A stretch of DNA of 29,284 nucleotides, taken from assembly GCA_964603125.1 (NCBI GenBank), contig CAZRUA010000041.1, positions 1-29,284 on the forward strand, given 5' to 3'. Positions within the stretch are counted from its first letter, which is position 1. Each line of letters opens with the position of its first letter. Of the stretch, positions 15,530 through 29,284 are shown one piece after another. The notes beneath the pieces were generated by a model. That model had not been told where the DNA came from, ran no database searches, and saw only the letters and a program-made list of their open reading frames with translations. Source of the DNA: an uncultured Flavobacteriaceae bacterium. GTDB taxonomy: Bacteria; Bacteroidota; Bacteroidia; B-17B0; Aurantibacillaceae. A program made the translations under genes and the position numbers.

Positions 15530-17944
15530 ATGTTTGTAATTAAAAGAGATGGCACAACAGAGACAGTGAAATTCGACAAGATCACTGCACGTATTCAAAA
15601 ACTCAGCTACGGATTAGATCCTGTACACGTTCAACCTATTGATGTTGCTATGAAAGTAATCAATGGATTGTATGATGGTGTATCAACTAGTCAGTTAGAT
15701 AATTTAGCAGCTGAAACAGCAGCTTCATTAACAACAAAGCACCCTGATTATGCTTTATTGGCTTCTCGTATCGTAGTTTCAAACTTACACAAAAACACTA
15801 CAAAATCGTTTTCAAAAACAATTAGCGATTTATACTTTTATACAGATCCAAAAACAGGACAAAAAGCTGCATTAATTGCTGATGATGTTTATGAAATAGT
15901 TCAGGCAAACGCCCAATTACTTGACTCAACTATTATTTATGATCGCGATTTTGGTTACGATTATTTTGGTTTTAAAACTTTAGAGCGCTCTTATTTATTA
16001 AAATTACACGGTCAAGTTGCTGAACGCCCTCAGCACATGATTATGCGTGTTGCCATTGGAATTCACAAAGAAGATATTACATCAGCCATTGAAACATACC
16101 ACTTAATGAGTGAACGTTGGTTTACACACGCTACTCCAACTTTGTTTAATGCTGGTACGCCAAAACCTCAAATGTCATCTTGTTTTTTAATTCAAACTAA
16201 AGATGATAGTATTGATGGTATTTACGATACATTAAAAAGCTGTGCTAAAATTTCACAATCAGCAGGTGGAATTGGTTTAAGCATTCACAATATTAGAGCT
16301 ACAGGTTCTTACATTAAAGGAACTAACGGAACATCAAATGGTATTATACCAATGTTGCGTGTATTTAATGACACTGCTCGTTATGTTGACCAAGGTGGAG
16401 GGAAACGTAAAGGTTCATTCGCTATCTATTTAGAACCATGGCATGCAGATATTTTTGATTTCTTAGATATCCGTAAAAATCATGGTAAAGAAGAACAACG
16501 TGCTCGTGATTTATTTACTGCACTTTGGATTTGCGATTTATTTATGAAGCGTGTGGAAGAAGAAGGAGATTGGACTTTATTCTGCCCGAACGAAGCTCCA
16601 GGCTTATCAGATTGTTGGGGACAAGAGTTTGAAGCTCTTTACACAAAATACGAAGCTGAAGGACGTGGACGTAAAACAATTAAAGCACGCGAATTATGGG
16701 CTGCAATAATTGATGCACAAATTGAAACAGGTAATCCATACATGTTGTATAAAGATGCTTGTAACTCGAAATCAAATCAACAAAATTTAGGTACCATCAA
16801 GTCTTCGAACTTATGTACTGAAATTTTAGAGTACACTGCTCCAGATGAAATTGCTGTTTGTAATTTAGCTTCTATTGCTTTACCTCGTTTTGTTGACTTA
16901 GAAAAAGGAATTTTTGATCACCAAAAATTATTTGAAGTAACTTATGTTGCTACAAAAAATTTAAACAAAATTATCGATCGTAACTACTACCCAGTTGCAG
17001 AAGCTCGTAAATCAAACTTACGTCACCGTCCTATCGGACTAGGTGTTCAAGGTTTAGCTGATGCGTTTATTATGTTACGTTTCCCTTTTGAAAGTGATGA
17101 AGCTCGTAAATTAAACTCTGAAATTTTTGAAACTATTTACTATGCAGCAATGACAGCTAGTAAAGATTTAGCAAAAATTGAAGGTCCTTACGAAACTTAT
17201 GCTGGATCGCCAGTATCAAAAGGTCAATTCCAATTTGACATGTGGGGTGTAACTCCAAGCCCACGTTGGGAATGGGATGTGTTAAAAGAAGAAGTAATGA
17301 AACATGGTGTACGTAACTCATTATTAGTTGCACCAATGCCAACAGCTTCAACTTCACAAATTTTAGGTAACAATGAGTGTTTTGAACCATATACTTCAAA
17401 CATTTATTCTCGTCGTGTGTTATCAGGAGAATTTGTTATTGTAAATAAACATTTATTAAAAGACTTAGTGAAACTAGGAATTTGGAATGACGGTTTAAAA
17501 AACAAAATTATCGCTGCAAACGGTTCAATCCAACACATTGCTGAAATTCCAGAAAACATTAAAGAACTTTACAAAACAGTTTGGGAAATTAAACAACGTG
17601 CTATATTAGATATGGCTGCTGATAGAGGTGCATATATTTGTCAATCGCAATCATTAAACTTATTTATTCAAGATGCGAACTTCGCAAAAATGTCATCTGC
17701 ACATTTCTATGCTTGGAAAAAAGGTTTAAAAACAGGTATGTATTACTTAAGAACAAAAGCTGCAGCTGATGCAATTAAGTTTACTGTTGATACAACTGCT
17801 AAAGAAGAAATTTTAGGTAACGAAGATATTTTAGTGGCACAACGTAGCACAATGACACCAGCTAATTTAAGCGAAGAAGAAATTCAAGCACAATTATCTT
17901 GCTCATTAGATAATCCTGAAGGATGCGAAATGTGCGGTTCTTAA
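15530..17944 (+). CDS. nrdA: Ribonucleoside-diphosphate reductase large (alpha) subunit, class Ia
   Basis: N-terminal ATP cone ([22 protein letters not shown]) and catalytic-domain motifs (NLCTEI, the C-terminal CxxC tail CEMCGS). Length is 804 aa. Confidence 0.9.
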
Positions 17945-17970
17945 AATTAAGAATTCTAAATATTAAAAAA

Positions 17971-17997
17971 AGCCACGTTAATAGCGTGGCTTTTTTA
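17971..17997. terminator. Bidirectional rho-independent terminator between nrdA and the convergent downstream gene
   Basis: agccacg-ttaatag-cgtggct forms a 7-bp GC-containing stem followed by ttttttatt. It also sits at the 3' end of the minus-strand gene 17995-19080. Confidence 0.7.
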
Positions 17998-19080
17998 TTG
18001 TGTGAATTGCAAAACAGTTGGATCATAGGTTTTATAAGATAGAACCTTAGAAATCTTTCTACCCTTATATTCAATTGTAATTCTGCTTGTGTCTTTAGAA
18101 TTACTAGACGGAAGTTTGCAACCAGCAAACCACGCATAATCGCGCAAATCCGCATAATGATACTCTCCTTCTTCTCCAGAACAATTTATTTCAATCAATC
18201 TATTCTTTGCGTCATATACAAAGTTTATCTTGGAACAATGATTATATTTTCCATTTATTGGTAATGAGTCCGCATCAAACCACTCTATACATTTAATCCT
18301 GTTGTTTTCATAAGTATGTAATTCGAGCGCTATGCCGTAATCATCTCCAATTAAATGACTAGTTGAGTCAAAATATCTCCTTTGAATTAACTTTTTCTGT
18401 GAATAAGTATTTATGTAACCAGACCAAGAGAATTGAATATCACAACCTAAAACTCCTGCCTTTCTATAAAACATTTCACTTACTAAACCAAAGTTCTTAT
18501 TATATTTTGTAACCCAATAATTAATTTTTGTTGTGTCATTTTTTTTAATCTGTCCCCTTACATCATAATTATTTTTAAAATACCAAAAAGATCCTTCACA
18601 AGTATCATTATTTGAAATGTTCTTATAATAAGTTTCACTGAATTTTTTTCCTCTCGTAAAATTAACTTCCTTACAAAACCCTGAAATATTTTCTTTGAGT
18701 TGACCAAGTGAATCGTAAAAAATTGTAGTTCTTTCAATTACCTTTCTTCTTTGAATAGCTCTATAAACCTTATAAGCGATTCCTTCATAATCACAAACTA
18801 GATGACCAAGTGTATCCATATAAGATTCCTTCCAACAACTATTCTTCTTATCCTTTTCTCGCACAACTTCCCATACAGAATTTCCATAGGAATATAATGG
18901 GACGCGTCTATTTGTCGAATCAAAACAAATTTCCTTTGATTTCGATTTACTCAACCAAATTCTTTCAATTGTACTTCCATTGTCTTCTCTAAATTTAATA
19001 TTCGTTCTTTGTGAGAATCCGATTTGACAGAAAGTCAAAACTAAAACAATGAATATTTTTAATAAAAACTTCATTATCAA
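17995..19080 (-). CDS. Secreted hypothetical protein, W/Y/C-rich with YD-repeat-like motifs
   Basis: Signal peptide MIMKFLLKIFIVLVLTFCQIGFSQ. The motifs FYDSLGQL and YDAKNRLIEI resemble YD/RHS repeats. Confidence 0.45.
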   Translation of the reverse strand: MIMKFLLKIFIVLVLTFCQIGFSQRTNIKFREDNGSTIERIWLSKSKSKEICFDSTNRRVPLYSYGNSVWEVVREKDKKNSCWKESYMDTLGHLVCDYEGIAYKVYRAIQRRKVIERTTIFYDSLGQLKENISGFCKEVNFTRGKKFSETYYKNISNNDTCEGSFWYFKNNYDVRGQIKKNDTTKINYWVTKYNKNFGLVSEMFYRKAGVLGCDIQFSWSGYINTYSQKKLIQRRYFDSTSHLIGDDYGIALELHTYENNRIKCIEWFDADSLPINGKYNHCSKINFVYDAKNRLIEINCSGEEGEYHYADLRDYAWFAGCKLPSSNSKDTSRITIEYKGRKISKVLSYKTYDPTVLQFTQ

Positions 19081-19140
19081 ATATAGTCAATCTATATTTG
19101 AATCGCGCAATTCAATTAAATAAAATTTATATTCATTTTA

Positions 19141-19397
19141 AACACGCTGCGAAACCCTTTTAAAATATAGTGATTCAAAGCTATCAGTTTCTAAGAACAC
19201 TGAAATAAAATTTAAAAAGACAAAAAAAATTTTTGCAGATAAAAAATTTAAATTACTTTTGCATCACAAATAAAAATTATAAACTAAAAAATTAAACGAA
19301 AGAAACAATGTTGGTGTTAAATTTACATACGAAACCTTAAACCGGAAACATTAGTACTATCAATACTTTCAGCCCGGTTTATTGCCGGGTTTTTTAT
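19141..19397 (+). repeat. Copy 1 of a diverged ~260-bp direct repeat: promoter-like -33/-7 elements, a ~130-nt A-rich transcript region, and an intrinsic terminator. Candidate sRNA or attenuator leader upstream of rtcB
   Basis: TTTG at 19232-19235 and TAcTTTTG at 19254-19261 match Bacteroidetes -33/-7 elements. A terminator gcccgg-tttattg-ccgggt plus a T-run lies at 19372-19397. The region is homologous to 21901-22185 (cgaaacccttttaaaatatag vs cgaaacacctttaaaataaag; ttttgcatcacaaataaaaatt vs ttttgcatcataaaatattaaaaat). Confidence 0.4.
19372..19397 (+). terminator. Intrinsic terminator ending repeat copy 1
   Basis: 5-6 bp GC stem (gcccgg/ccgggt) with a 7-nt loop, followed by ttttttatttg. Confidence 0.5.
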
Positions 19398-19619
19398 TTG
19401 TTATAATTGAAAACAACTTTTTGGGGAGTCGAAAAGTAACCGGAAAAAATCAAAATTATTTTATTAAAAATCTTAGGTAAGATTTTAGAATTGATTTTCT
19501 AATGTCAGTTCAAGCAGCATTCTCTTTTCAGGAAATGTATCGAGAACAAACTGAAAATCAATTCCGCTTAGTCGAATACATCGACATGGAAAAATATTGC
19601 CTAAACAAAACCAACAATC

Positions 19620-21023
19620 ATGGGAAAAAATAGATTGAAGGGAAAACATTTAAGGAAAATAGATTTCCCTTCGGACATAGCTAAAAGTTTAGCATTAAAT
19701 ATTATGACGAAACATTTTAAACATGTTTCAAACGAAGAAAAATTACAAATAATACAAAACGTTCTTTTAAATCCTGAACAATACTTAGAAGATGAACATC
19801 TAAAACCCTTGTCGATTGCCTTAGTTGGGAAGCCAAAAATGAAAACTGATTATGAAGTTCACATGTTAAAACACAGTGGTGATTTTACCATTTATGGTCT
19901 ACGTCATATCGGACAAAATGCAATTCAACAAATGGAAGCAGCGATGCGATTACCCATCTCGATGAAAGGAGCTTTAATGCCTGATGCTCATCATGGATAT
20001 GGTTTGCCAATCGGCGGTGTACTAGCAACAAATAACGCAGTAATCCCTTTTGGAGTAGGCCTGGATATTGGTTGTCGAATGGCTTTGAGTATTTACAAAC
20101 TTCCAGAAGATTACATTCAACGCAAGGAGTATGATTTACAAAAAGCATTGCGTAGATATACACATTTTGGAAATGATGGGACACTTGATTTTGAAGTAGA
20201 TCATGAAGTGCTTGAGCGCCCTGAATTTCAAGCCACTGAATTACTCCGAAGATTACATGGTAAAGCGTGGTTTCAACTAGGTTCATCAGGCACAGGAAAT
20301 CATTTTGTTGAATTTGGAAATGTAACAATTGCTCAAAACAATACATTGAATTTACAACCTGGGAATTACATTGGTTTACTATCTCACAGCGGTTCAAGAG
20401 GCATGGGTGCTGCCATAGCAGCAACTTATACTAAAATAGCAATGCAAAAATGCAAACTTCCGCGTGAAATGCAATCAATGGCTTGGTTAAGTTTAGATGA
20501 AGAAGCTGGTCAAGAGTATTGGTTATCCATGAACTTAGCGGGTGACTATGCAAAAGCCTGTCATGATGTGATTCACAAAAACCTTGAACGTGTAATGGGC
20601 TTAGAAGCTATATGCAAAGTTGAGAATCATCACAATTTCGCATGGAAAGAAATACACGACGGTCAAGAATTGATTGTACACCGAAAAGGCGCAACGCCAG
20701 CAAACAAAGGTGAATTCGGTATCATACCAGGAAGTATGAGCAGCAATGGATACATAGTAAGTGGTTTAGGATTACAGGGTTCAATTAATTCAGCATCGCA
20801 TGGGGCCGGCCGAAAAATGTCACGTAAAGAAGCAAGAGAGAGTATAACAAAATCTTCGATGACAAATTTATTAGCCGAACAAAGTGTGAAATTAATTGGT
20901 GGCAGCGTAGAAGAGGCTTCATTTGCTTACAAGGATATTGAGACTGTTATGAGCTGTCAACAAGACCTAGTAAAAATAGAAGGTTCATTCACTCCAAAAA
21001 TTGTAAGGATGAACAAAAGTTAA
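19620..21023 (+). CDS. rtcB: RtcB-family 3'-phosphate/5'-OH RNA ligase (PrfH-associated RtcB2-type)
   Basis: DAHHGYGLPIGG and GSSGTGNHFVEFG are metal and GTP-binding motifs. The His-rich core is typical of RtcB. It sits immediately upstream of prfH, as in the E. coli rtcB2-prfH pair. Confidence 0.85.
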   Translation: MGKNRLKGKHLRKIDFPSDIAKSLALNIMTKHFKHVSNEEKLQIIQNVLLNPEQYLEDEHLKPLSIALVGKPKMKTDYEVHMLKHSGDFTIYGLRHIGQNAIQQMEAAMRLPISMKGALMPDAHHGYGLPIGGVLATNNAVIPFGVGLDIGCRMALSIYKLPEDYIQRKEYDLQKALRRYTHFGNDGTLDFEVDHEVLERPEFQATELLRRLHGKAWFQLGSSGTGNHFVEFGNVTIAQNNTLNLQPGNYIGLLSHSGSRGMGAAIAATYTKIAMQKCKLPREMQSMAWLSLDEEAGQEYWLSMNLAGDYAKACHDVIHKNLERVMGLEAICKVENHHNFAWKEIHDGQELIVHRKGATPANKGEFGIIPGSMSSNGYIVSGLGLQGSINSASHGAGRKMSRKEARESITKSSMTNLLAEQSVKLIGGSVEEASFAYKDIETVMSCQQDLVKIEGSFTPKIVRMNKS

Positions 21024-21123: not shown

Positions 21124-21774
21124 ATGGAAACAAAAATATTACAAATAACATCAGGTAGAGGCCCCGCAGAATGCTGTTTAGCTGTTGCATTGACCTTGAA
21201 AGAAATATTGAAGGAGGCTAAAGAAAATAATTTAGCATGTGAAGTAATTAACCGCACACCATATAACATAAACGGAACTTTAGCTTCCGCATCTGTTAAA
21301 ATAAGTGGGAAAAACATTTCTCCATTCATTAATTCTTGGCAAGGTGTATTAGGTTGGATTTGTCAAAGTCCTTTCAGAACGATGCATAAAAGAAAAAACT
21401 GGTTCATAGGAATTGAAGTCTACGACTTATCATCCACTTCACAATGGAGTGAAAAAGATGTTTACTATCAAACACTTCGATCTTCAGGTCCAGGTGGTCA
21501 AAACGTAAATAAAGTAGAAACAGCTGTAAGAGCCGTACACAAGCCTTCAGGCGTGCAGGTTTTAGCTAATGAATCTCGTTCGCAAATGCAAAATAAAAAA
21601 ATTGCGTTAGAGCGATTAAAAGAATTATTTATACAATGGCAATTAAACAATTTAAGAAAAACAGAAAAGCAACAATGGCAAAATCATAATTGTGTTGAAA
21701 GAGGTAATCCAAAAAGAATTTACAAAGGAATCAATTTCAAAAAAGAAAAAATTGGACGTAGTCGAATCAATTGA
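21124..21774 (+). CDS. prfH: Peptide chain release factor homolog RF-H (PrfH)
   Basis: GGQ motif in context (LRSSGPGGQNVNKVETAVRAVH). The N-terminal GPAECCLAV, WICQSPFRTMHKRKNWFIGI and C-terminal ERGNPKRIYKG all align with my recollection of E. coli PrfH. Length is 216 aa. Confidence 0.85.
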   Translation: METKILQITSGRGPAECCLAVALTLKEILKEAKENNLACEVINRTPYNINGTLASASVKISGKNISPFINSWQGVLGWICQSPFRTMHKRKNWFIGIEVYDLSSTSQWSEKDVYYQTLRSSGPGGQNVNKVETAVRAVHKPSGVQVLANESRSQMQNKKIALERLKELFIQWQLNNLRKTEKQQWQNHNCVERGNPKRIYKGINFKKEKIGRSRIN

Positions 21775-21900
21775 TAATAAAGGATTCCAAAGCAAATGAG
21801 AAATTAAAAATTAAAAACTAGCAAGTATTAAAAAATTAAAACGAAACATACAGAATTCAATTTTGATTTATAAAAAATAAAATTGAAATAATAAATTTAT

Positions 21901-22185
21901 AATAATTTTAAATAAGGCTCGAAACACCTTTAAAATAAAGCTCTTCAAGGCAGTATGTTTTTAGAAAAGAAAAATATTTAAAATTTATTTCATAAAATAT
22001 TTTTTCAATTCAAAAATTTGATTTAGTTTTGCATCATAAAATATTAAAAATAAAATGAAAAATAGTTTTACATATCGTCAAAAGTCAATCCTGATAGGGC
22101 ATGCGCCGTTATCATATTGCATGGGGTGGTAAAATTATTTTAAATAATAATTCTAAACCCCGATACGCTCGGGGTTTTTTTATGA
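21901..22185 (+). repeat. Copy 2 of the diverged direct repeat (promoter-like elements, ~145-nt transcript region, terminator), downstream of prfH and upstream of the Rnl5-like ATP-dependent ligase gene
   Basis: TTTG at 22005-22008 and TAgTTTTG at 22024-22031. A terminator ccccga-tacgc-tcgggg plus T7 lies at 22155-22181. Homologous to 19141-19397. Confidence 0.4.
22155..22181 (+). terminator. Intrinsic terminator ending repeat copy 2
   Basis: aaaccccga tacgc tcggggttt followed by tttttttatg. Confidence 0.55.
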
Positions 22186-22437: not shown

Positions 22438-23439
22438 ATGAGGAAATTAGCTTCAATACAAAAAATTAAAAATATAGAACCAATCGAAGGTGCAGATTCA
22501 ATTATGAAAGCAAGTGTTTTAGGTTGGCAATTAGTAATTAGAAAAGATGAATTTAAAATTGGTGATTTATGCGTTTACTGTGAAATTGACAGTGTATTAC
22601 CCGATAAACCAGAATTTGAATTTATCCGTGCTAAAACTAATCGTATTAAAACTATAAAATTACGTGGTCAAATTTCACAAGGTATCTGCTTTCCATTATC
22701 AGTTTTACCAGAAGGTATAGAGATTGTTGAGGATTTAGACGTTACAGAAATAATTGGTGTAACAAAATTTGAACCGCCAATTCCTGCTAACTTAGCTGGT
22801 GAGATTAAAGGCTTATTTCCTTCATTCATGCCTAAAACAGATGAAACTAGGGTGCAAGTTTTACAACATGTTTTAGATCAATACAAAGGATTAACCTGTT
22901 ACATTGCTGAGAAATTAGATGGAAGCTCTGTAACTTATTACTTCAAAGATGGTGAGTTTGGAGTTTGTTCGCGGAATTTAGATATAGTTAAAAACGAAGA
23001 AAACTCAATGTGGAAATTTGCAATTGAGAACGATTTAGAACAAAAGTTAAAATCATTAAACAAAAACATTTGCTTACAAGGTGAAATAATTGGTGAGGGT
23101 ATTCAAAAAAATAAATACAAGTTAAAAGGTCAAACGGTTTTCTTTTTTAATGTATTTGATATTGATAAATATGAATACTTATCATTAAGCTACTTTAAGC
23201 AAATAATAAATGATTTGAACTTAAAGCATGTTCCAATTATTGAAGATCAATATGAGTTAACGAACAATATGGATGAATTAATTTTAAAATCTAAATTAAA
23301 GTCGACGTTAAACAAAGATACAATCGCTGAAGGTATTGTTATCAGGCCAACGACAGAGATGATTGAAAAACATAAATTACAAGGACGCTTGTCGTTTAAA
23401 GTTATCAATCCAGATTTTTTAATAAAATACGACGAGTAA
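22438..23439 (+). CDS. ATP-dependent RNA ligase, Rnl5-like (DraRnl/NgrRnl-type: N-terminal OB-like domain plus nucleotidyltransferase domain)
   Basis: Motif I KxDG (AEKLDGSSV), motif IV EGIVIR, motif III-like FFFNVFDI and a motif V-like RLSFKVINPD. The N-terminus MRKLASIQKIKNIEPIEGADSI ... GWQLV resembles the N-terminal domain of Deinococcus/Naegleria nick-sealing RNA ligases. Confidence 0.65.
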   Translation: MRKLASIQKIKNIEPIEGADSIMKASVLGWQLVIRKDEFKIGDLCVYCEIDSVLPDKPEFEFIRAKTNRIKTIKLRGQISQGICFPLSVLPEGIEIVEDLDVTEIIGVTKFEPPIPANLAGEIKGLFPSFMPKTDETRVQVLQHVLDQYKGLTCYIAEKLDGSSVTYYFKDGEFGVCSRNLDIVKNEENSMWKFAIENDLEQKLKSLNKNICLQGEIIGEGIQKNKYKLKGQTVFFFNVFDIDKYEYLSLSYFKQIINDLNLKHVPIIEDQYELTNNMDELILKSKLKSTLNKDTIAEGIVIRPTTEMIEKHKLQGRLSFKVINPDFLIKYDE

Positions 23440-23547
23440 TTAAGAATGTAGAATGATGAATTCAGAACTAAAGCGACAAATAAAATTCAGTTTTTTATAT
23501 CTACCGAATTACGGTTGAATGGAGATCGTATGCTTAACTAAGCATAA

Positions 23548-23580
23548 GCCCGGTCTCAAAAGGATCGGGCTTTTTGTTTT
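23548..23580 (+). terminator. Terminator after the Rnl5-like ATP-dependent ligase gene
   Basis: agcccg-(13 nt)-cgggct followed by ttttgtttt. It is preceded by a second hairpin, tatgctta/taagcata, at 23530-23547. Confidence 0.5.
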
Positions 23581-23596: not shown

Positions 23597-23614
23597 ATCC
23601 CGATTGTAATCGGG
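23597..23614. repeat. Variant copy of the CCCGAT-N4-ATCGGG palindromic hairpin (TCCCGATTGTAATCGGGA)
   Basis: cccgatt/aatcggg is a 7-bp inverted repeat. It shares its arms with the 18-bp palindrome at 23649, 23732 and 26642. Confidence 0.5.
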
Positions 23615-23648
23615 AAGGCACTTGTCTTAGAAAAGAAAGGTGAGTTCG

Positions 23649-23672: not shown

Positions 23673-23761
23673 AAGGCACAATGCACTTGTGGCGGAAATG
23701 GTATACGCAACAGACTTAAACTCTGTTATGAATGTTGGTTCTCCCGATAGCTATCGGGACT
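23673..23761 (+). tRNA. tRNA-Leu(TAA)-like type-II tRNA-like gene with non-canonical T-arm region (possible pseudo-tRNA)
   Basis: Acceptor GCACTTG/CATGTGC with one T-T mismatch. D-arm GCG-(11 nt with GG)-CGC. Anticodon arm AACAGA/TCTGTT with loop CTTAAAC (anticodon TAA). The T-arm position is occupied by the 18-bp palindrome (23732-23749) instead of a GTTCRANYC loop. Confidence 0.3.
23732..23749. repeat. 18-bp perfect palindrome TCCCGATAGCTATCGGGA (copy 2), embedded in the Leu-like tRNA-like element
   Basis: Identical to the copy at 23649-23666. Confidence 0.6.
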
Positions 23762-23767
23762 ATCATG

Positions 23768-23854
23768 TGCACTAAGAGGAGAAATAATCGAGCAGGGCTC
23801 GAACTTGTTTGCTAAACAATGTGTCCGCCTAATGGTGGTTGAGTGTCGGGAACT
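23768..23854 (+). tRNA. tRNA-Ser(GCT)-like type-II tRNA-like gene with non-canonical D-arm and T-loop
   Basis: Acceptor GGAGAAA/TTTCTCC is perfect. A CTTGT/ACAAT stem carries the loop TTGCTAA (anticodon GCT). The variable arm is CCGCC-TAAT-GGTGG. The T-arm is TGAGT-GTCGGGA-ACTCA and lacks the TTC T-loop signature. Confidence 0.3.
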
Positions 23855-23868
23855 CATTTCTCCGCAAA

Positions 23869-23951
23869 GGAAGATAGCGACCAGTGGTGGTCAGGCAGAC
23901 TTGAAATCTGCAGCGGTCTGAAAGGACAGGGTTCGACTCCTATATCTTCCG
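23869..23951 (+). tRNA. tRNA-Ser(TGA)-like type-II tRNA with weak T-stem
   Basis: Acceptor GGAAGAT/ATCTTCC is perfect. Anticodon arm GCAGA-CTTGAAA-TCTGC gives anticodon TGA. The variable arm is GTCT-GAAA-GGAC. The T-loop TTCGACT is canonical but the T-stem has only 3 bp. The D-arm GACC-AGTGGT-GGTC has one extra nucleotide at each junction. Confidence 0.4.
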
Positions 23952-23982
23952 CAAGTATTAAATTAAAATTGTTCTTTAAACA

Positions 23983-24055
23983 CGATTTATAGTATAATGG
24001 ATAACACACCCGATTACGACTCGGGAGACTTAAGGTTCGAGTCCTTATAAATCGA
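23983..24055 (+). tRNA. tRNA-Arg(ACG)
   Basis: 73 nt. Acceptor CGATTTA/TAAATCG. Anticodon arm CCCGA-TTACGAC-TCGGG. T-arm TAAGG-TTCGAGT-CCTTA. The D-stem has one A-C mismatch. The gene is AT-rich, and CCA is not encoded. Confidence 0.65.
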
Positions 24056-24060
24056 CGAAA

Positions 24061-24134
24061 TGAGATATAGCTCAACAGGTAAGAGCAGGTGCCTTATACG
24101 CACAAGGCTATAGGTTCAAATCCTATTATCTCAA
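24061..24134 (+). tRNA. tRNA-Ile(TAT)
   Basis: 74 nt. Acceptor TGAGATA/TATCTCA (U1-A72). D-arm GCTC-AACAGGTAA-GAGC. Anticodon loop CTTATAC (anticodon TAT). T-arm ATAGG-TTCAAAT-CCTAT. One G-A mismatch closes the anticodon stem. Confidence 0.6.
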
Positions 24135-24143
24135 CAAATAAAT

Positions 24144-24216
24144 CGGTCTATAGCTCAGATGGCAGAGCACCGTCCTTTTAAGACGGGAGTCCTTGGTTCG
24201 AATCCAAGTAGGCCGA
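24144..24216 (+). tRNA. tRNA-Lys(TTT)
   Basis: Fully canonical cloverleaf. Acceptor CGGTCTA/TAGGCCG (one G-U). D-arm GCTC-AGATGGCA-GAGC. Anticodon arm CCGTC-CTTTTAA-GACGG. T-arm CTTGG-TTCGAAT-CCAAG. Confidence 0.8.
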
Positions 24217-24226
24217 CAAATAAAAA

Positions 24227-24299
24227 CGGGATGTATTTCAATTGGTAGAATACGTGTTCTGGAAACATGAGGTTGCAGGTTCGAGTCCTGCCATCCCGA
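24227..24299 (+). tRNA. tRNA-Pro(TGG)-like with C at position 33 and an A/U-rich 3-bp D-stem
   Basis: Acceptor CGGGATG/CATCCCG. T-arm GCAGG-TTCGAGT-CCTGC. Anticodon stem CGTGT/ACATG with loop TCTGGAA (C33, anticodon TGG). An alternative fold gives a 9-nt loop. Confidence 0.5.
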
Positions 24300-24304
24300 C
24301 GAAT

Positions 24305-24378
24305 GGTGAAATTAGTGTAATGGCAAACACAAAAGCCTGTGAAGCTTTTAATACAGGTTCGATTCCCTTATTTCACCC
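24305..24378 (+). tRNA. tRNA-His(GTG)-like (G-1 encoded) with weak T-stem
   Basis: G-1 plus GTGAAAT/ATTTCAC, with C73. D-arm GTGT-AATGGCAA-ACAC. Anticodon arm AAAGC-CTGTGAA-GCTTT. The T-loop TTCGATT is flanked by a 3-of-5 paired stem (ACAGG/CCCTT). Confidence 0.5.
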
Positions 24379-24381
24379 ATT

Positions 24382-24454
24382 GGACAAGTAGCAAACGTGG
24401 TGTATGCGCTGGACTGAAAATCCAGAGAAAGTGGTTCAACCCCACTCTTGTCCA
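24382..24454 (+). tRNA. tRNA-Phe(GAA)
   Basis: Acceptor GGACAAG/CTTGTCC. Anticodon arm CTGGA-CTGAAAA-TCCAG. T-arm AGTGG-TTCAACC-CCACT. 3-bp D-stem with an 11-nt loop and a 4-nt variable loop. Confidence 0.65.
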
Positions 24455-24521
24455 CAAAAATTATTAGTAAAGCAAAAGCTATCTGGCTAAAAAAGAGATA
24501 GTAAATAATTAAAACAAAAAA

Positions 24522-24857
24522 ATGAAAACAACTTTCGAATTCAGAAAAAAGTTTTTAGAAGGTAGAGATGATTCAGGAAGATTCATTGTAACATCATACC
24601 GAACTGGTAAGACGTATTTTATCGAACCTATTGGCCCTGATAGAGCCGCTGATTGGGGAAGTTACAATCCTTCAACAGGAAACATCGAAAACAAAAAAGG
24701 TTTTGATAAACATAGAGGTGCAATTGATGAAAAAGATTCTCTAATTACGAAGGAAAATGGATTCCTTGATATTAGATATTCGGGAGTAGGAGGATCACCT
24801 TTTAGTGTAATTGAAAAAATGGATGCTCAGTATCCCAACATCAATAAAATTCACTAA
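24522..24857 (+). CDS. Hypothetical 111-aa protein embedded in the tRNA array
   Basis: ORF with a proper ATG. I recognise no motif. It lies between tRNA-Phe and tRNA-Tyr and is followed by the hairpin gcggaatt ... aattccgc at 24869-24892. Confidence 0.45.
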   Translation: MKTTFEFRKKFLEGRDDSGRFIVTSYRTGKTYFIEPIGPDRAADWGSYNPSTGNIENKKGFDKHRGAIDEKDSLITKENGFLDIRYSGVGGSPFSVIEKMDAQYPNINKIH

Positions 24858-24868
24858 TGATACTTCTA

Positions 24869-24892
24869 AAAATAAAGCGGAATTTGAAAAAT
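24869..24892 (+). terminator. Hairpin after the 111-aa ORF (8-bp stem, no T-tract)
   Basis: gcggaatt-tgaaaaatt-aattccgc. Confidence 0.3.
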
Positions 24893-24905
24893 TAATTCCG
24901 CAATT

Positions 24906-24989
24906 GGGAATGCGCTAACGATGGTGAGTTAGACTGGTCTGTAACACCAGGGTCATTTGACTTAATAGGTTCGAATCCTATCATTCCCA
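24906..24989 (+). tRNA. tRNA-Tyr(GTA), type II
   Basis: Acceptor GGGAATG/CATTCCC. D-arm CTAA ... TTAG. Anticodon arm CTGGT-CTGTAAC-ACCAG. Long variable arm GTCA-TT-TGAC. T-arm ATAGG-TTCGAAT-CCTAT. Position 8 is C. Confidence 0.65.
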
Positions 24990-25034
24990 CAACAATTATC
25001 GTTTCAAGCCGAAATTGTTATATAGTTCTTTGAT

Positions 25035-26039
25035 TTAATAGTTTTTCAATGCGTCTTTAAATCGCTCTTGCATTTTAAGGCTTAATCTTCTTGGACTTAG
25101 CACTTTTACATGCTCACCATAACCGAGCAGTTCTCGTTCTAACTCAAAGTTCCAAATAACTTTAATAGAAAAGATTGTTCCATCATCTTCTTCTTTTAAT
25201 ACTTCTTGGGAAACGTGGAGTGGTTTTGTAATAATATATGGTGCATGTTCTTTAACAAACTTAAGCACTATGGTTTGGGCTCTTTGATTAATGTTTTTAG
25301 TTACTCCAATTGTATCGGCGTAATAATCATTAACATTAAAGTCAGGCTTTACATACTTCTCTGAGTTTAATTCCTGAATATTGAGTATTCTATCCAGAGC
25401 AAGATTCATAATCGTTTTATTCTTTCGAGTTGCACCAAGAATAAACCATCTATTACGATACTCTTTAAGCAAATACGGATAAAAAATAATTTGCTGAGGA
25501 ATACGAGCTTTAAAAGATTGATAAGAAATTTCAAGCGTTTTTTTGCTAATAATTGCCTTATGCAAAATATCGATATACTTTAAACCTTTCACGAGCACAT
25601 TCTTTTCAAACTCAATATAGGATTTACCTTTATGGCTTTGTTTGTAGAGTTTATCTTCAAGTCGAGTTACCATTCCGTTAAGCTCCTCAAAAAAACCAAA
25701 TGCTTTAAACTGCTTTAAAACATCAACTACTTCATTCAAAGTATTCATGTCTTGTTGAGTTAAAGGATTATTTGTGATACTGTAGTCTTTCTCGGCGTAA
25801 CTATAATACTTTTTATCACTTACAATAATTGGCGCATTGTACCCAAGCTTTTCGCTTCGCATATTATAAATATCGAGTTGTAAAGTTCGTCGACTAACGC
25901 CAGTAGTAATTCCTTCGTATTCATAAAGCGCATCAGAGCAAGCTTCCATAAGATCTTCTAATGTCCATTTACGAAAACGGTTTTGCAAACAGTTATCAAT
26001 TGTTTTATAACGAATAAGGGCTAATTTGTTTATTGACAT
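25035..26039 (-). CDS. WYL-domain transcriptional regulator (N-terminal HTH, central WYL, C-terminal extension)
   Basis: 334 aa. The WYL-domain signature RNRWFILGATRKNKTIMNLALDRILNI gives the W-F/Y-L triad and an (L/F)RLDRI motif. The N-terminal MSINKLALIRYKTIDNCLQNR is HTH-like. Confidence 0.65.
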   Translation of the reverse strand: MSINKLALIRYKTIDNCLQNRFRKWTLEDLMEACSDALYEYEGITTGVSRRTLQLDIYNMRSEKLGYNAPIIVSDKKYYSYAEKDYSITNNPLTQQDMNTLNEVVDVLKQFKAFGFFEELNGMVTRLEDKLYKQSHKGKSYIEFEKNVLVKGLKYIDILHKAIISKKTLEISYQSFKARIPQQIIFYPYLLKEYRNRWFILGATRKNKTIMNLALDRILNIQELNSEKYVKPDFNVNDYYADTIGVTKNINQRAQTIVLKFVKEHAPYIITKPLHVSQEVLKEEDDGTIFSIKVIWNFELERELLGYGEHVKVLSPRRLSLKMQERFKDALKNY

Positions 26040-26247
26040 GATTTCGAATTGAGAATGATAACCAAAAATACAAAAATCAACGCAATGTAAATGCGCAGTT
26101 CAAATAATTCTGAAATGAAATAAAATTAATTCCTTTCATTTCCAGTCAATTATCAAAATATGTAAAGAATTCATTTACTACGCAAATTGACTGCGCACTT
26201 CTTTAATTCCTTTGTATCCATATAAAAACAAAAAATGAAATCGACAT

Positions 26248-26565
26248 ATGAATAAATATATAAGATTAAAAGAAGAGTTAGAAAAAATAGGAATAGGTAA
26301 AATGAAATGCTTTGGAAACTCAATGCTTCCAATTTTAAAAAGCGGCTCATTGCTAACCTTTAAAAAAGAAAATGATTACAAAGTAAATGATATTGTGTTT
26401 TGTAAAGTGAAAGGGAGATTCATCGATGCGCACCTAATTACAAAGATTGATGCAAACAGAGGGTATCTGATAGCAAACAATCATGGTTATGAAAATGGTT
26501 GGACAAAAATAATATATGGAAAAGCCGTATACAGTGAATTTAAGAATGAAAGTAAAAAACTATAA
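26248..26565 (+). CDS. S24-family (LexA/UmuD-like) peptidase domain protein, stand-alone
   Basis: GNSMLP matches the G-[DN]-S-M-x-P catalytic Ser motif of S24/S26 peptidases. A downstream Lys (KVKGRF) could serve as the general base. Only 105 aa, so the peptidase domain alone. Confidence 0.45.
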   Translation: MNKYIRLKEELEKIGIGKMKCFGNSMLPILKSGSLLTFKKENDYKVNDIVFCKVKGRFIDAHLITKIDANRGYLIANNHGYENGWTKIIYGKAVYSEFKNESKKL

Positions 26566-26641: not shown

Positions 26642-26659
26642 TCCCTATAGCTATCGGGA
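26642..26659. repeat. Third copy of the 18-bp palindrome, with one mismatch (TCCCTATAGCTATCGGGA)
   Basis: 17 of 18 identical to the copies at 23649 and 23732. It lies in the ORF-free region 26566-27610. Confidence 0.5.
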
Positions 26660-26873: not shown

Positions 26874-26942
26874 ACATTTCAGGCTATGGCAGCCAATTGC
26901 TCTCCAAAAGCAAAGGACAACGTTCGATTCGTTGGAAATGTG
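26874..26942 (+). tRNA. tRNA-Trp(CCA)-like with shortened D-arm
   Basis: Acceptor ACATTTC/GAAATGT is perfect. Anticodon arm TTGCT-CTCCAAA-AGCAA gives anticodon CCA. T-arm CAACG-TTCGATT-CGTTG is canonical. The D-arm GGCT-ATGGC-AGCC is irregular. Total length 69 nt. Confidence 0.35.
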
Positions 26943-27201
26943 CCAATAGAATAATAGCAGCTAGGGCAAAGCCTTGTTTAAAACGTAGGAAATTCCCGTT
27001 ATTATTCTAAAAACTTAAAACATTGTTCATTGAAAAACAAAATACTGTTCGGAAGAACAAAAAATCTTCCTCGTGCCAGAGGAAGCGCGATACATAAACA
27101 AAACAATGCCTTGTTGTGGGTTTAAAACGCCCCATAGTATTGTACCAGTAGGAATCAATATACTGCAGCGCCATGTTTAGGGTATTGCTCATGTTGGGGT
27201 C

Positions 27202-27359
27202 AAGGGTTCAATTCCCTTTTTGTTCACAAGGACAAATAGCTCAGTTGGTTAGAGCACAACGCTTAGGTTACGGGTTCGAGTCCCGTCACGATTTCGCTCG
27301 TGTAACTCAATGGTAGAGTAATGGACTGAAAATCCATGCGTAGAAGTTGACTTACTTCT
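27202..27359 (+). pseudogene. String of degenerate tRNA-like modules: a 3' T-arm-plus-acceptor fragment, a D-arm-plus-T-arm module lacking an anticodon arm, and a tRNA-Phe(GAA)-like copy lacking a 3' acceptor strand
   Basis: 27202-27226 is AAGGG-TTCAATT-CCCTT followed by TTTGTTC. 27230-27293 is GGACAAA-TA-GCTCAGTTGGTTAGAGC, 13 nt, ACGGG-TTCGAGT-CCCGT. 27296-27359 is GCTCGTG-TA-ACTC-AATGGTA-GAGT-A-ATGGA-CTGAAAA-TCCAT followed by AGAAG-TTGACTTA-CTTCT. The junctions form hairpins: TTTGTTC/GGACAAA and CACGA/TCGTG. Confidence 0.3.
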
Positions 27360-27610: not shown

Positions 27611-28714
27611 ATGATACAAAGAGTAAAAGTTGATGCCTGGAAAAAAGGCTTGGTAATTAAAAACAACAATTTAATTGATGTTTTAAGTGAAGGTACATAC
27701 TGGTTATCTGCAAGTGTAGCTGTAATTAATTATGATATGGCTAAACCATTTGTTGCGCCAATTAACCTTAACATTTTGATGAAAAATCAAAAATTTGCAG
27801 ATGCGGTTAAAATAGTAAACGTAGCCGACAATGAAATAGCATTGCGCTATGAAGGAGATACATTTGTTGAAGTATTAACCCAAGGTAAATACCTCTATTG
27901 GGAAGGTTTGGTAGAACACAAAATAATTGCAATTGACTTGAGTGTTGTGGATATTGATGTTGGCATAGATAAAGCAATACTTACACGTAAAGAGCTTGCT
28001 CCATACATACGCACTTTTGTTATAGAACCTAATGAAAAAGCAATTGTTTATATTGATGGTAAGTTCAACAAAATTGTTGAAGCAGGTTCTTACAGCTATT
28101 GGAAAAACAATACTAACATAGCCATAACAAAAGTTGAAACACGAACCATGCAAATGGAAGTTGCTGGTCAAGAAATACTGACAAAAGATAAGGCCGTAAT
28201 ACGACTAAACTTTTACTTGCAATACAATGTTGTTGACGCTGTTAAAGCAATTTTAAACAACAAGGAGTACGAAAAACAATTGTATGTTTTAATACAGCTT
28301 GCTTTACGTGAATTTGTTGGTTCCATGACCTTAGATGAGCTTTTAGAGAAAAAAGAAAATGTATCTGATTACATATTGGATTCAACTGCTCGAAAAGTTT
28401 CATACTTGGGTGTATTAATAAAAGGTTGTGGTATACGTGATATTATTTTACCTGGTGATATGAAGGAAATAATGAATCAAGTATTGATTGCAGAGAAAAA
28501 AGCCCAAGCTAACACAATTATGCGTCGTGAGGAAACTGCCTCAACACGTAGCTTGCTAAATACTGCAAAGCTAATGGAAGACAATGCGATGTTGTTTAAG
28601 TTAAAAGAAATGGAATATGTAGAAAAGATTGCAGAGAAGATAAATACTATTTCATTATCAGGTGGTTCACAAATTGTGGATCAGCTAAAACAAATATTTG
28701 TCTCTAATAAATAG
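27611..28714 (+). CDS. SPFH (band 7 / stomatin-prohibitin-like) domain protein with ~170-aa N-terminal extension
   Basis: The C-terminal half carries an SPFH-domain pattern (KDKAVIRLNFYLQYNVVD ... REFVGSMTLDELLEKKENVS ... IRDIILPGDMKEIMNQVLIAEKKAQANTIMRREE). Confidence 0.65.
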   Translation: MIQRVKVDAWKKGLVIKNNNLIDVLSEGTYWLSASVAVINYDMAKPFVAPINLNILMKNQKFADAVKIVNVADNEIALRYEGDTFVEVLTQGKYLYWEGLVEHKIIAIDLSVVDIDVGIDKAILTRKELAPYIRTFVIEPNEKAIVYIDGKFNKIVEAGSYSYWKNNTNIAITKVETRTMQMEVAGQEILTKDKAVIRLNFYLQYNVVDAVKAILNNKEYEKQLYVLIQLALREFVGSMTLDELLEKKENVSDYILDSTARKVSYLGVLIKGCGIRDIILPGDMKEIMNQVLIAEKKAQANTIMRREETASTRSLLNTAKLMEDNAMLFKLKEMEYVEKIAEKINTISLSGGSQIVDQLKQIFVSNK

Positions 28715-28742: not shown

Positions 28743-28813
28743 AGGGATAAAATGCCCTTTCGTCTAACGGCAGGACGTTACTTTTTGACAGTAAATATTG
28801 TGGTTCGAATCCA
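28743..28813 (+). tRNA. tRNA-Gln(TTG)
   Basis: Acceptor TGCCCTT/AAGGGCA (U1-A72, as is usual for bacterial tRNA-Gln). D-arm GTCT-AACGGCA-GGAC. Anticodon arm TTACT-TTTTGAC-AGTAA is perfect. T-arm TGTGG-TTCGAAT-CCACG with one U-G pair. The variable loop is 4 nt. Confidence 0.7.
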
Positions 28814-29284
28814 CGAAGGGCAACAAAAATAAACTTATAGATTATCTGCCGCGGCAGAGTAAAAGCTGCTGTAAAATTACTTAACCGCGAAGTGTGGGGA
28901 TAATTCCGGCGAGCCTTGACGTTGCGAAGAGCTGAGTTTACAGTGCACCGGAAAAGAGAAATCAAAGTAGGGAAGCGTATTTATAGCCATACTATTCAGA
29001 AATGAAAATGGAGGTTCGAATCCCATTAGGGCCGCAGAAAGGGACTGACCTGATAAAAAAGGGTTCAGTCCCTTTGTCATTAAAAGAAAATCGCCCGACA
29101 GACGGGCGATTTCAGCGATTACAGAATTTATTTTTGGAGTTCGAAATGACCCATTTTTTCGATCATAAACAATCCCTTCAGGAAAGACTAATTTTTGCAA
29201 TTTTTCCTTGAGATTTATGCTTCCTTTGAGCCACAATCTCGTGATTTTCAGGCACAATTGGGCTACCTCATGTAGGCTTTCGCA

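Follow-up and report, generated by a model that had tools for sequence, protein, structure and literature searches.

The array of transfer RNA (tRNA) genes at positions 23673-24989 of a 29,284-nt contig from an uncultured Flavobacteriaceae bacterium (CAZRUA010000041.1; this whole stretch is called the window below) is, with a confidence a little better than even, a supernumerary and horizontally mobile tRNA set lodged in an RNA-damage-response island, where it could act as a spare pool of decoders co-expressed with RNA ligases. Gene order and conservation show the array to be genetically coupled to an RtcB-PrfH pair, an ATP-dependent RNA ligase (Rnl), a WYL regulator and a Band-7 protein with its tRNA-like RNA, and the comparison with related loci shows it to be fronted by the same unit of promoter, leader open reading frame (ORF) and terminator as the ligases. 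As far as sequence can tell, the array is not a stray phage remnant; it is part of a conserved Bacteroidota island. The window is bacterial, has a G + C (GC) content of 33%, and the island starts in it at ~19.1 kb. tRNA genes were called with ARAGORN at default and relaxed thresholds and with the Rfam model RF00005 (gathering score 29 bits). Homologous loci compared with the window carry L-numbers, L033-L038 being those of its closest relatives. The tRNA and tRNA-like genes of the window are the following:

23683-23771, + strand: tRNA-Leu(UAA)-like gene (Rfam tRNA model 22.5 bits, below threshold; otherwise recognised by eye)
23778-23864, + strand: atypical tRNA-Ser(GCU)-like gene (missed by ARAGORN and Rfam; conserved in L033-L037)
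23869-23952, + strand: tRNA-Ser(UGA) (ARAGORN at relaxed threshold only; conserved in L033-L037)
23983-24056, + strand: tRNA-Arg(ACG) (ARAGORN; Rfam 59.4 bits)
24061-24135, + strand: tRNA-Ile(UAU) (ARAGORN; Rfam 70.4 bits)
24144-24217, + strand: tRNA-Lys(UUU) (ARAGORN; Rfam 65.2 bits)
24227-24300, + strand: tRNA-Pro(UGG) (ARAGORN; Rfam 61.8 bits)
24305-24378 (24306-24378 in ARAGORN), + strand: tRNA-His(GUG) (Rfam 56 bits; weak T stem)
24382-24455, + strand: tRNA-Phe(GAA) (ARAGORN; Rfam 59.7 bits; 3-bp D stem)
24906-24990, + strand: tRNA-Tyr(GUA), class II (ARAGORN; Rfam 38 bits)
26874-26945, + strand: tRNA-Trp(CCA) (ARAGORN only; short D arm, A1-U72, G73, CCA encoded)
28753-28824, + strand: tRNA-Gln(UUG) (ARAGORN; Rfam 56.5 bits; U1-A72)

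Ten tRNA or tRNA-like genes, with tRNA-Trp and tRNA-Gln in addition downstream, are found within 1.3 kb, and the GC content of the window tRNAs is 38-54%. An earlier, sequence-only reading had described an array of phage-like tRNA genes between 23673 and 24989, which is borne out, with corrections, by seven default ARAGORN calls on the + strand within these limits. Six of the seven score 56-70 bits with Rfam (E values of 1e-9 to 1e-13 for the six best-scoring array genes) and tRNA-Tyr scores 38 bits. A cloverleaf with at least 29 bits was obtained for Arg, Ile, Lys, Pro, His, Phe, Tyr and Gln; with RF00005 the Leu-TAA-like gene stays below the threshold (22.5 bits), the Ser-GCT-like gene gives no hit, Ser-TGA is matched by the Sec model only, and tRNA-Trp, called by ARAGORN only, has no Rfam match. 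Relaxed ARAGORN runs in tmRNA and intron modes returned spurious calls only in the window. What had been taken for Ser/Leu-like type II genes resolves into Ser-TGA, the atypical Ser-GCT-like gene and the Leu-TAA-like gene, the last of them disrupted. The proposed spacers of 3-20 nt hold among Arg, Ile, Lys, Pro, His and Phe (3-9 nt) and fail between Ser and Arg (30 nt), and the tight packing does not extend from Phe to Tyr, between which a 111-aa ORF (24522-24857) is located. The acceptor stem ACATTTC had been misplaced: it belongs to tRNA-Trp (26874-26945), outside 23673-24989. That no gene of the array encodes CCA was correct (0 inside these limits), and tRNA-Trp outside them does encode it, as G73-CCA.

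Although divergent, these genes have kept the features by which tRNAs are charged. By the established tRNA identity rules, the retained elements are G-1:C73 in His (G-1 being encoded at 24305), C1-G72 and A73 in Pro, A1-U72 and G73 in Trp, U1-A72 in Gln, G73 and the long arm in Ser, and A73 in Leu, Phe, Lys, Ile and Tyr. The Ser(GCU)-like gene combines a 5-bp D stem and a 5-nt loop with a long variable arm, the T loop GTCGGGA and G73, and compensatory changes are seen in its D stem and variable arm across the five related loci L033-L037. In Ser(UGA) the acceptor stem counts 8 bp and the T stem 3 bp, and the best Rfam match of this gene is the tRNA-Sec model (34.6 bits vs. a gathering score of 47). 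In the Leu(UAA)-like gene the acceptor, D arm, anticodon arm and A73 are retained and the T arm is replaced by a palindrome (23742-23759), so that it is probably no working decoder. Single departures were also noticed in Arg(ACG), with one A12-C23 mismatch in the D stem, and in Pro(UGG), with C33 in place of the near-universal U33 and an anticodon loop (TCTGGAA) found in no other of 37 island tRNA-Pro genes.

The island genes are shown by their substitution patterns to be tRNA-shaped and apparently under selection for that shape. In alignments of 38-49 island genes, compensatory double changes that keep the cloverleaf were recorded for 16/17 pairs in Phe, 19/21 in Arg-ACG and 13/18 in His, and every island tRNA-His encodes G-1. 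With the tRNAs of L033-L037 those of the window share 72-95% identity (Ile(UAU) 89-95% with L033-L035; Trp 83% with its L036 counterpart), and their median identity to island tRNAs of the same anticodon phylum-wide is 60-69%. Redundancy was judged from the Arg-ACG genes of a single related genome, Flavobacterium sp. NRK F7, and from tRNA-Phe genes across Kordia species. The canonical tRNA-Phe, with encoded CCA and 53% GC, is identical in three Kordia loci/species; the island tRNA-Phe of four Kordia species, without CCA and at 42-45% GC, is 96-100% conserved mutually and shares 57% identity with the canonical tRNA-Phe of congeners. NRK F7 has a second Arg-ACG gene 9 kb from the island one, and the two share 63% identity. 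In either pair, the anticodon loops differ at positions 32, 37 and 38. In these related genomes, the comparisons show the island tRNAs to be what look like diverged copies of canonical isoacceptors. An encoded CCA is also missing from the canonical-looking Flavobacterium tRNA-Arg.

Unusual structures recur across the islands. Position 37, which to our knowledge is normally always a purine in tRNA, is U in 38/50 tRNA-Asp and in 13/33 tRNA-Glu, and it is G in 38/49 tRNA-Phe. Island tRNA-Leu genes (UAG, UAA, CAG) are mostly 73-76 nt long in ~35 Bacteroidota loci (L034-L112; e.g., L062 9457-9530, L097 9396-9470 and L050 9485-9638); they keep the Leu-type D arm and A73 and have no long variable arm, a feature which, as far as we know, is present in all normal bacterial tRNA-Leu. 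Phe, Asp, Arg-ACG, His, Pro, Leu-UAG, Tyr, Glu, Lys, Asn and Gln are the commonest island species, and Ala, Gly, Val, Thr, Met and Ser the rare ones. Anticodon nucleases are known to target Tyr, His, Asn and Asp (colicin E5), Arg (colicin D), Lys (PrrC) and Glu, Lys and Gln (zymocin-type toxins). The overlap of these targets with the commonest island tRNAs is suggestive only, and it is plausible that the island tRNAs may escape such nucleases.

The array lies among genes for RNA repair, ribosome rescue and regulation, with the marker protein ORF111 in its midst:

19620-21023, + strand: RtcB-family RNA ligase (Pfam PF01139, E 2.5e-76; PHROG tRNA splicing ligase)
21124-21774, + strand: PrfH, peptide chain release factor H (TIGR03072, 234.7 bits vs. 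a cut-off of 166.65; Pfam RF-1 domain)
22438-23439, + strand: Rnl, DraRnl-type ATP-dependent RNA ligase (DRB0094, N-terminal OB fold; TIGR02306, 193 bits vs. a cut-off of 151)
24522-24857, + strand: ORF111, conserved 111-aa protein of unknown fold, marker of the tRNA arrays
25035-26039, - strand: WYL-WCX transcription regulator, convergent with the array (Pfam WYL and WCX; PADLOC WYL)
26248-26565, + strand: small S24-like protein (LexA/signal-peptidase fold; Pfam PF00717; 105 aa, S24 peptidase-like domain alone)
27611-28714, + strand: SPFH/Band-7 protein (Pfam PF01145)

RtcB, 6.6 kb upstream of Band-7, is below the NCBIfam equivalog cut-offs (TIGR03073, 144 bits vs. 271.8), and prfH, which starts 100 nt downstream of rtcB, passes the equivalog test. 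Rnl is further matched by the Pfam PHA02142 OB domain, by RNA_ligase and by PHROG 968. In the relatives, the S24-like gene is embedded between tRNA genes next to the WYL regulator (synteny in L033-L038), and the regulator may add control of the island. The part of the intergenic region between the WYL and S24-like genes at 26165-26240 resembles the upstream region of RtcB in L033 (15580-15657). The sequence-only reading, which did name the two ligases, had missed ORF111, the WYL regulator, Band-7 and its tRNA-like RNA, PrfH, tRNA-Trp, tRNA-Gln and the disruption of one type II gene.

The functional link to the ligases which that reading had suggested gains support from the distribution of ORF111. 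Homologues from a scan with one genome per species gave 80 genome loci, nearly all in Bacteroidota, with taxa that include Flavobacterium, Kordia, Tenacibaculum, Winogradskyella, Emticicia, Spirosoma, Fluviicola and Chitinophagales. At least one tRNA gene is present within 6 kb of ORF111 in 70/80 loci and five or more in 52/80 (1-23 tRNA genes per locus), which corresponds to ~7 tRNAs per 12 kb vs. ~0.1-0.2 expected by our own estimate for a 4-5 Mb genome with ~50 tRNA genes. Within 10 kb of ORF111 we counted Band-7 in 47 of the 80 loci, RtcB in 38, WYL in 21, PrfH in 11 and Rnl in three, with at least one of these repair-island genes in 60, and these figures are conditional on ORF111 because the loci were gathered through it. 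The closest relatives L033-L038 (ORF111 79-86% and WYL 70-75% identical; Rnl 77% in L037) carry the anticodons of the window in shuffled order, interleaved with ORF111, WYL and S24. As the arrays of L034-L036 reach 21-23 genes and, through a minimal set of U34/G34 anticodons, serve all 20 amino acids, the array of the window is best described as what is left, reduced and partly eroded, of a larger ancestral unit. In L033, the closest chromosomal relative, RtcB is followed (17089-20131) by two RlaP nucleotidyltransferases, a HipA_2 kinase and DUF3037, all of them absent from the window.

The phage-like or mobile character of the array, also part of the earlier reading, is seen in the same marker. 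ORF111 homologues (60-84% identity) lie inside arrays of 5-14 tRNAs in 9/10 IMG/VR viral contigs, alongside HNH endonucleases and in one case RtcB, and another homologue is found in a 554-kb phage-like contig carrying aminoacyl-tRNA-synthetase fragments. Since ORF111 is 84% identical in a 101-kb viral contig (vs. 40-50% in Flavobacterium chromosomes) and flanking contexts and repertoires differ between loci, the array appears to have been spread by horizontal transfer, and phage tRNA arrays and chromosomal repair islands exchange parts. A search of the array by blastn against 50,697 phage records gave only ~90-110 nt matches of 74-78% identity over single, mostly unannotated tRNA genes; these are generic and uninformative on its origin. 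No phage structural or replication genes were found in the 29-kb window with Pfam and PHROG searches, and the PHROG hits are confined to the ligases, the RF-1 protein and a weak match of WYL (E 5.6e-06) to a PHROG of unknown function. With these hits, and with cellular flanks (GatB, MsrAB, NrdAB, carbonic anhydrase), a phage or prophage location of the window array was rejected. The genes of the first 19 kb of the window are cellular (GatB, a DUF4369-redoxin protein, an ECF sigma factor, MsrAB, carbonic anhydrase, bestrophin, an ABC ATPase and NrdAB). Two flanking ORFs, at 17995-19080 (- strand, 361 aa) and 28877-29257 (- strand, 126 aa), have no hit in PHROGs, NCBIfam or PADLOC, and the 361-aa ORF has none in Pfam either.

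A second line of evidence for coupling is given by the regulatory sequences in front of the ligases and the array:

19123-19391, + strand: promoter/leader copy 1, before RtcB, with a Bacteroidetes-type -7 box (TAcTTTTG), a short ORF (19308-19340) and an intrinsic terminator (19371-19391)
21893-22177, + strand: promoter/leader copy 2, before Rnl, with the promoter TTGATTTAGTTTTGCA at 22018, a leader ORF at 22055-22132 (MKNSFTYRQKSILIGHAPLSYCMGW) and a terminator at 22155-22177
23453-23572, + strand: second short leader ORF, 23453-23518 (MMNSELKRQIKFSFLYLPNYG), and intrinsic terminator, 23546-23572, directly before the array
Units in relatives: L033 8928-9099; L034 8955-9125; L035 8915-9089; L036 9069-9243; L037 5550-5724

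Positions 19123-19270 and 21893-22040 are direct repeats (D3/D4) with 73-80% identity and a constant offset of 2770, which end with the Bacteroidetes-type promoter TTGATTTA(c/g)(a/t)TTTG(c/t)A and are followed by a short ORF and an intrinsic terminator; a sigma-70 promoter scan is not meaningful for Bacteroidota. The promoter/leader that precedes RtcB and Rnl in the window is the element that lies directly upstream of the tRNA array in L033-L036, in keeping with the proposed link to the ligases, and in L037 it is found upstream of Rnl. The second leader of the window (23453-23572) is homologous to the stretch preceding tRNA-Gln in L035 and L036. Leader ORF and terminator are conserved in six leaders; five of the ORFs, which are ~25 codons long, start with MK(N/H)xF(T/I)Y, often followed by (R/S)Q. 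A G-tract just 5' of the leader stop codon is conserved and complementary to the 5' arm of the terminator AAACCCCGA...TCGGGGTTTTTT. The window leader has a folding z-score of -3.9, its 5' codons pairing with the G-tract region. The unit looks like the layout of a putative ribosome-mediated attenuator.

Non-coding RNAs and inserted hairpins were also recorded in the island:

27152-27359, + strand: tandem tRNA-like (YrlA-like) element upstream of Band-7 (Rfam YrlA 39.7 bits; partial tRNA hits of 27-31 bits)
28845-29040, + strand: structured non-coding element of ~190 nt (blastn 72-73% in L034, L035, L037, L038 and L078)
Homologues of the ~190-nt element: L034 12140-12335; L035 12683-12885; L037 10638-10825; L038 2024-2220; L078 7857-8060
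23649-23666, unstranded: 18-nt perfect palindrome TCCCGATAGCTATCGGGA, preceded by GTTCG
23598-23615, unstranded: variant of the palindrome with the loop TGTA
26642-26659, unstranded: copy of the palindrome with one mismatch
Palindrome sites in other loci: L105 9835; L061 8703; L050 8689 and 9422; L052 8713; L094 7543 and 7634
Hairpin-extended tRNAs: L033 9845-9938; L040 10948-11038 and 11173-11261; L109 11150-11241; L020 1887-1976; L030 6396-6484

In the first of these elements, the central part (27262-27326) matches the tRNA-like domain of YrlA with 39.7 bits vs. a gathering score of 69. It is also present in L033 (12466-12645), and an nhmmer profile located it 270-560 nt upstream of Band-7 in 32/48 Band-7 loci (~250 nt in the window). 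The tandem element is probably the predicted "Band-7-associated tRNA"; Burroughs and Aravind (NAR 44:8525) reportedly predicted in 2016 that Band-7 proteins, a tRNA-like RNA and RtcB act together in repair. The ~190-nt element, conserved and with no Rfam match, has a D-arm-like and, on the 3' side, a T-arm-like hairpin as well as a large insert, and the fold of its alignment contains eight covarying pairs; in the relatives it separates the WYL gene from the second half of the tRNA array.

Four copies of the palindrome TCCCGATAGCTATCGGGA are present in the window, all of them in the island, the fourth (23742-23759) being the one in the Leu-UAA-like gene, which it most likely inactivated. Recognisable tRNA genes of other islands carry it in the T loop, at the same position in L105 and L061, and filled and empty sites (L105/L073 for Leu-UAG; L061/L062 for Gln) show that 5 nt of T loop and stem give way to it, which makes the gene 13 nt longer. 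It was also encountered in an anticodon arm, and in the D loop of a homologous tRNA-like gene. Exact copies are present in at least 120 unrelated metagenome contigs (L115-L234): the 121 new loci analysed (120 of these contigs and one viral contig) hold 134 copies, of which most have no connection with tRNAs or repair genes and several sit in D loops of tRNA fragments, one of these within a 16S-23S spacer. No match to the sequence was found in the literature searched. We rejected a role as the operator of the WYL regulator, because the WYL-S24 and RtcB/Rnl promoter regions lack the palindrome and hundreds of unrelated contigs contain it. An archaeal-type protein-spliced intron was rejected as well, as there is no bulge-helix-bulge motif and excision restores no T arm, while a sequencing or adapter artefact is unlikely because the palindrome is found in isolate genomes at homologous tRNA positions. 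We regard it as a putative mini-hairpin, widespread and either mobile or recruited, with a protein-binding site as another candidate role. T arms of island tRNAs also hold other, lineage-specific hairpins, and two different Emticicia tRNAs (L040) carry the identical insert ACGGTCGGCCGCYGCCGT. In the islands and phage arrays, several tRNAs of normally short types reach 88-96 nt, because 16-18-nt hairpins are inserted on the 5' side of the T loop or in the variable region; tandem pairs with the same anticodon (Pro-Pro, Asp-Asp, Tyr-Tyr) were noticed in phage arrays.

These elements can be combined into a working model of the island. We infer that the Rnl-array unit is a single operon, which would comprise the promoter at 22018, leader and terminator, Rnl, the second leader and terminator, the tRNAs, ORF111 and tRNA-Tyr; the tRNAs would be released by RNase P and RNase Z and completed by the CCA-adding enzyme. 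When the tRNAs read by the leader codons (Phe-Thr-Tyr-Arg-Gln-Lys...) are cleaved or scarce, the ribosome would stall on these codons and free the G-tract, which could then pair with the CCCC arm of the terminator and allow transcription to read through, while a ribosome that reaches the leader stop codon would cover the G-tract. Shortage or cleavage of these tRNAs would in this way induce both RtcB-PrfH and the Rnl-array operon. The expected output would be ligases that reseal broken RNA, PrfH that frees stalled ribosomes, and fresh tRNAs whose altered anticodon loops possibly make them poor nuclease substrates.

Several observations weigh against the favoured explanation of the array as a spare decoder pool. 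The redundancy evidence comes from related genomes only (NRK F7 and Kordia), not from the window's own genome; no nuclease gene was found in the window, and the co-occurrence counts depend on the marker through which the loci were collected. The commonest island tRNAs also overlap common AT-rich codons, and because the set decodes these codons of the host, the repertoire could reflect codon use and not nuclease targets. The RtcB leader has a different ORF, and six leaders were available for comparison; their RNAalifold consensus contains the terminator only, and because this fold lacks a conserved 1:2 hairpin, the attenuator stays a model. Finally, the window copy is eroded, with 10-12 genes vs. 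21-23 in L034-L036, a disrupted Leu-TAA gene, an A-C mismatch in the D stem of Arg, C33 in Pro and 3-bp T stems in His and Ser-TGA.

A more far-reaching proposal, which we hold only tentatively and think more likely wrong than right, is that Bacteroidota own a self-contained "tRNA-damage regulon". Leader-peptide attenuators, in which codons for Phe, Thr, Tyr, Arg, Gln and Lys abound, would detect when the very tRNAs attacked by anticodon nucleases are lost, and would switch on RtcB-PrfH, the ATP-dependent ligase and a replacement set of nuclease-resistant non-canonical tRNAs (armless tRNA-Leu, U37 tRNA-Asp and tRNA-Glu, and G37 tRNA-Phe among them), assisted by ORF111 and a particle of Band-7 and tRNA-like RNA. 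Less likely still, the short hairpins found in T and D loops of some array genes would be mobile, and the co-encoded ligases would be needed to remove or tolerate them. Outside these proposals, it is improbable that the island tRNAs are decoys for tRNA-cleaving toxins, or cofactors or scaffolds of Band-7 and RtcB as Y RNAs are with Ro. Such roles would suit the non-decoding tRNA-like RNAs of the island (the YrlA-like element in 32/48 loci and the 190-nt element with its T arm) and the odd structures, such as 73-76-nt Leu genes without the long arm, U37 in Asp and Glu, and hairpins in T arms; a sponge has been raised for the Anabaena array (PMC8421152), and a cofactor role has been proposed for the Band-7-associated tRNA in bioRxiv 10.1101/312249. 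However, anticodons and aminoacylation identity elements are retained through deep divergence, and the largest arrays are complete minimal decoding sets for 20 amino acids, which would be needless for a decoy or scaffold.

We attach an equally low probability to the array being passive cargo, i.e., the remnant of a decaying phage or mobile tRNA cluster near repair genes and without a role for the cell. The array of the window is indeed reduced and has defects, repertoires vary from 1 to 23 genes among loci, and ORF111 is 84% identical to a protein of the 101-kb viral contig; yet the position of the arrays relative to ORF111 and Band-7 is constant in many cultured species of Flavobacterium, Kordia, Tenacibaculum and Emticicia, compensatory substitutions are found throughout, conservation within Kordia is 96-100%, arrays and ligases have a promoter/leader in common, and phage structural genes are missing from the window. 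Codon supplementation for the island, a phage or a fast-growing host, unrelated to RNA damage, has little to recommend it in our view. It is the classical explanation of phage tRNAs (PMC10264068), the decoded codons AAA, TTT, TAT, CAA, ATA and TTA are frequent in a window of 33% GC, and ATA is ~twofold and CGA ~fivefold more frequent in the island than in flanking genes, but most of the decoded codons are already common and must be well served by the host, and the linkage to RtcB, PrfH, Rnl and Band-7, the attenuator-like leaders and the divergence from canonical isoacceptors would be left unexplained. That the array is simply the housekeeping tRNA operon of the organism is very improbable: an AT-rich host (33% GC) and CCA-less genes not unusual in the phylum would be compatible with it, whereas the low Rfam scores and GC, patchy presence and absence, canonical copies elsewhere in related genomes, and an identity of 72-95% to the closest relatives vs. 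a phylum median of 60-69% speak against it, and tRNA-Ile(UAU), armless Leu genes and disrupted members are unfit for a core set.

Should the spare-pool explanation be true, bacteria, besides phages, would keep an inducible second tRNA set as protection from translation damage and from toxins that cleave tRNA, and a direct sensor of tRNA supply would connect this set with RNA ligases and ribosome rescue. Culturable Flavobacterium, Kordia, Tenacibaculum and Emticicia offer a tractable system in which to ask what RtcB, Rnl and Band-7 systems repair and what role ORF111 has. The island also lets one ask how far the structure of a functional tRNA drifts, with tRNA-Leu without a long arm, U37, C33 and 3-bp T stems as cases in point.

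The closest known parallel is the tRNA L-array of Anabaena PCC 7120, which is horizontally acquired, silent, induced together with rtcB by translational stress, and aids survival (PMC8421152, Santamaria-Gomez et al. 2021); Bacteroidetes are listed among the phyla with L-arrays (PMC8421152). Both are single-strand arrays of supernumerary, divergent tRNAs with horizontal spread and RNA-processing neighbours that include rtcB, redundancy in our case being judged from related genomes. Unlike the Anabaena array, the one studied here lies physically within a repair island, where ORF111 and an S24-like gene are interspersed among the tRNAs; a WYL regulator and leader-ORF-terminator units stand where Anabaena has a direct-repeat operator; and the array is linked to Band-7, a tRNA-like RNA and PrfH and has ~10-12 genes in the window. 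Repair systems of Band-7, b7a-tRNA and RtcB were predicted by Burroughs and Aravind, as described in bioRxiv 10.1101/312249. Band-7, an adjacent tRNA-like RNA and RtcB are all present in the window and form a conserved trio, and the system differs from that prediction, which reportedly concerns a single tRNA-like RNA, in having up to 23 decoding tRNAs and an embedded conserved protein.

The other parallels come from phages and from repair operons. Phage tRNAs have been proposed or shown to replace host tRNAs depleted by nucleases (PMC10264068; PMC11555353), and phage tRNA clusters are paired with RNA ligases (PMC7824862, PMC10264068); examples are the tRNAs and Rnl1/Pnkp of T4 against PrrC, jumbo phages, and the tRNAs of T5 against retron or PARIS-type defences (PMC10264068, PMC11555353, PMC7824862). 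Like these clusters, the island has compact, AT-rich, CCA-less and divergent tRNAs with U34/G34 anticodons beside RtcB or ATP-dependent ligases, and ORF111 homologues occur in phage arrays alongside HNH endonucleases, but the window is a bacterial chromosome, and any benefit would go to the cell rather than to a virus. RtcB2-PrfH repairs and rescues damaged ribosomes (PMC9304027, PMC9223846). As in that operon, rtcB and prfH are adjacent, with PrfH above the NCBIfam equivalog cut-off in the window; the Escherichia coli RtcB2-PrfH module differs in having no tRNA array, Rnl, Band-7 or WYL, and the RtcB of the window is below the TIGR03073 cut-off. The Salmonella rsr-yrlBA-rtcBA operon combines Ro60, Y RNAs with a tRNA-like domain, and RtcR activated by tRNA halves (PMC7790460). 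It shares with the window the grouping of RNA-repair genes with a tRNA-like non-coding RNA and is induced by damaged tRNA, while the window, without Ro60, RtcA or RtcR/sigma-54, has a WYL regulator and attenuator-like leaders instead. We did not find the Bacteroidota arrangement, with arrays inside a Band-7/RtcB island, described in the literature searched. tRNA L-arrays, Band-7/RtcB systems and phage tRNA sets beside RNA ligases are already established or proposed; what we could not find described are arrays within the Band-7/RtcB island, the phage-shared ORF111 marker, the common leader-terminator units and the non-canonical tRNA structures. Hardly described before, this arrangement recurs in many Bacteroidota and their phages.

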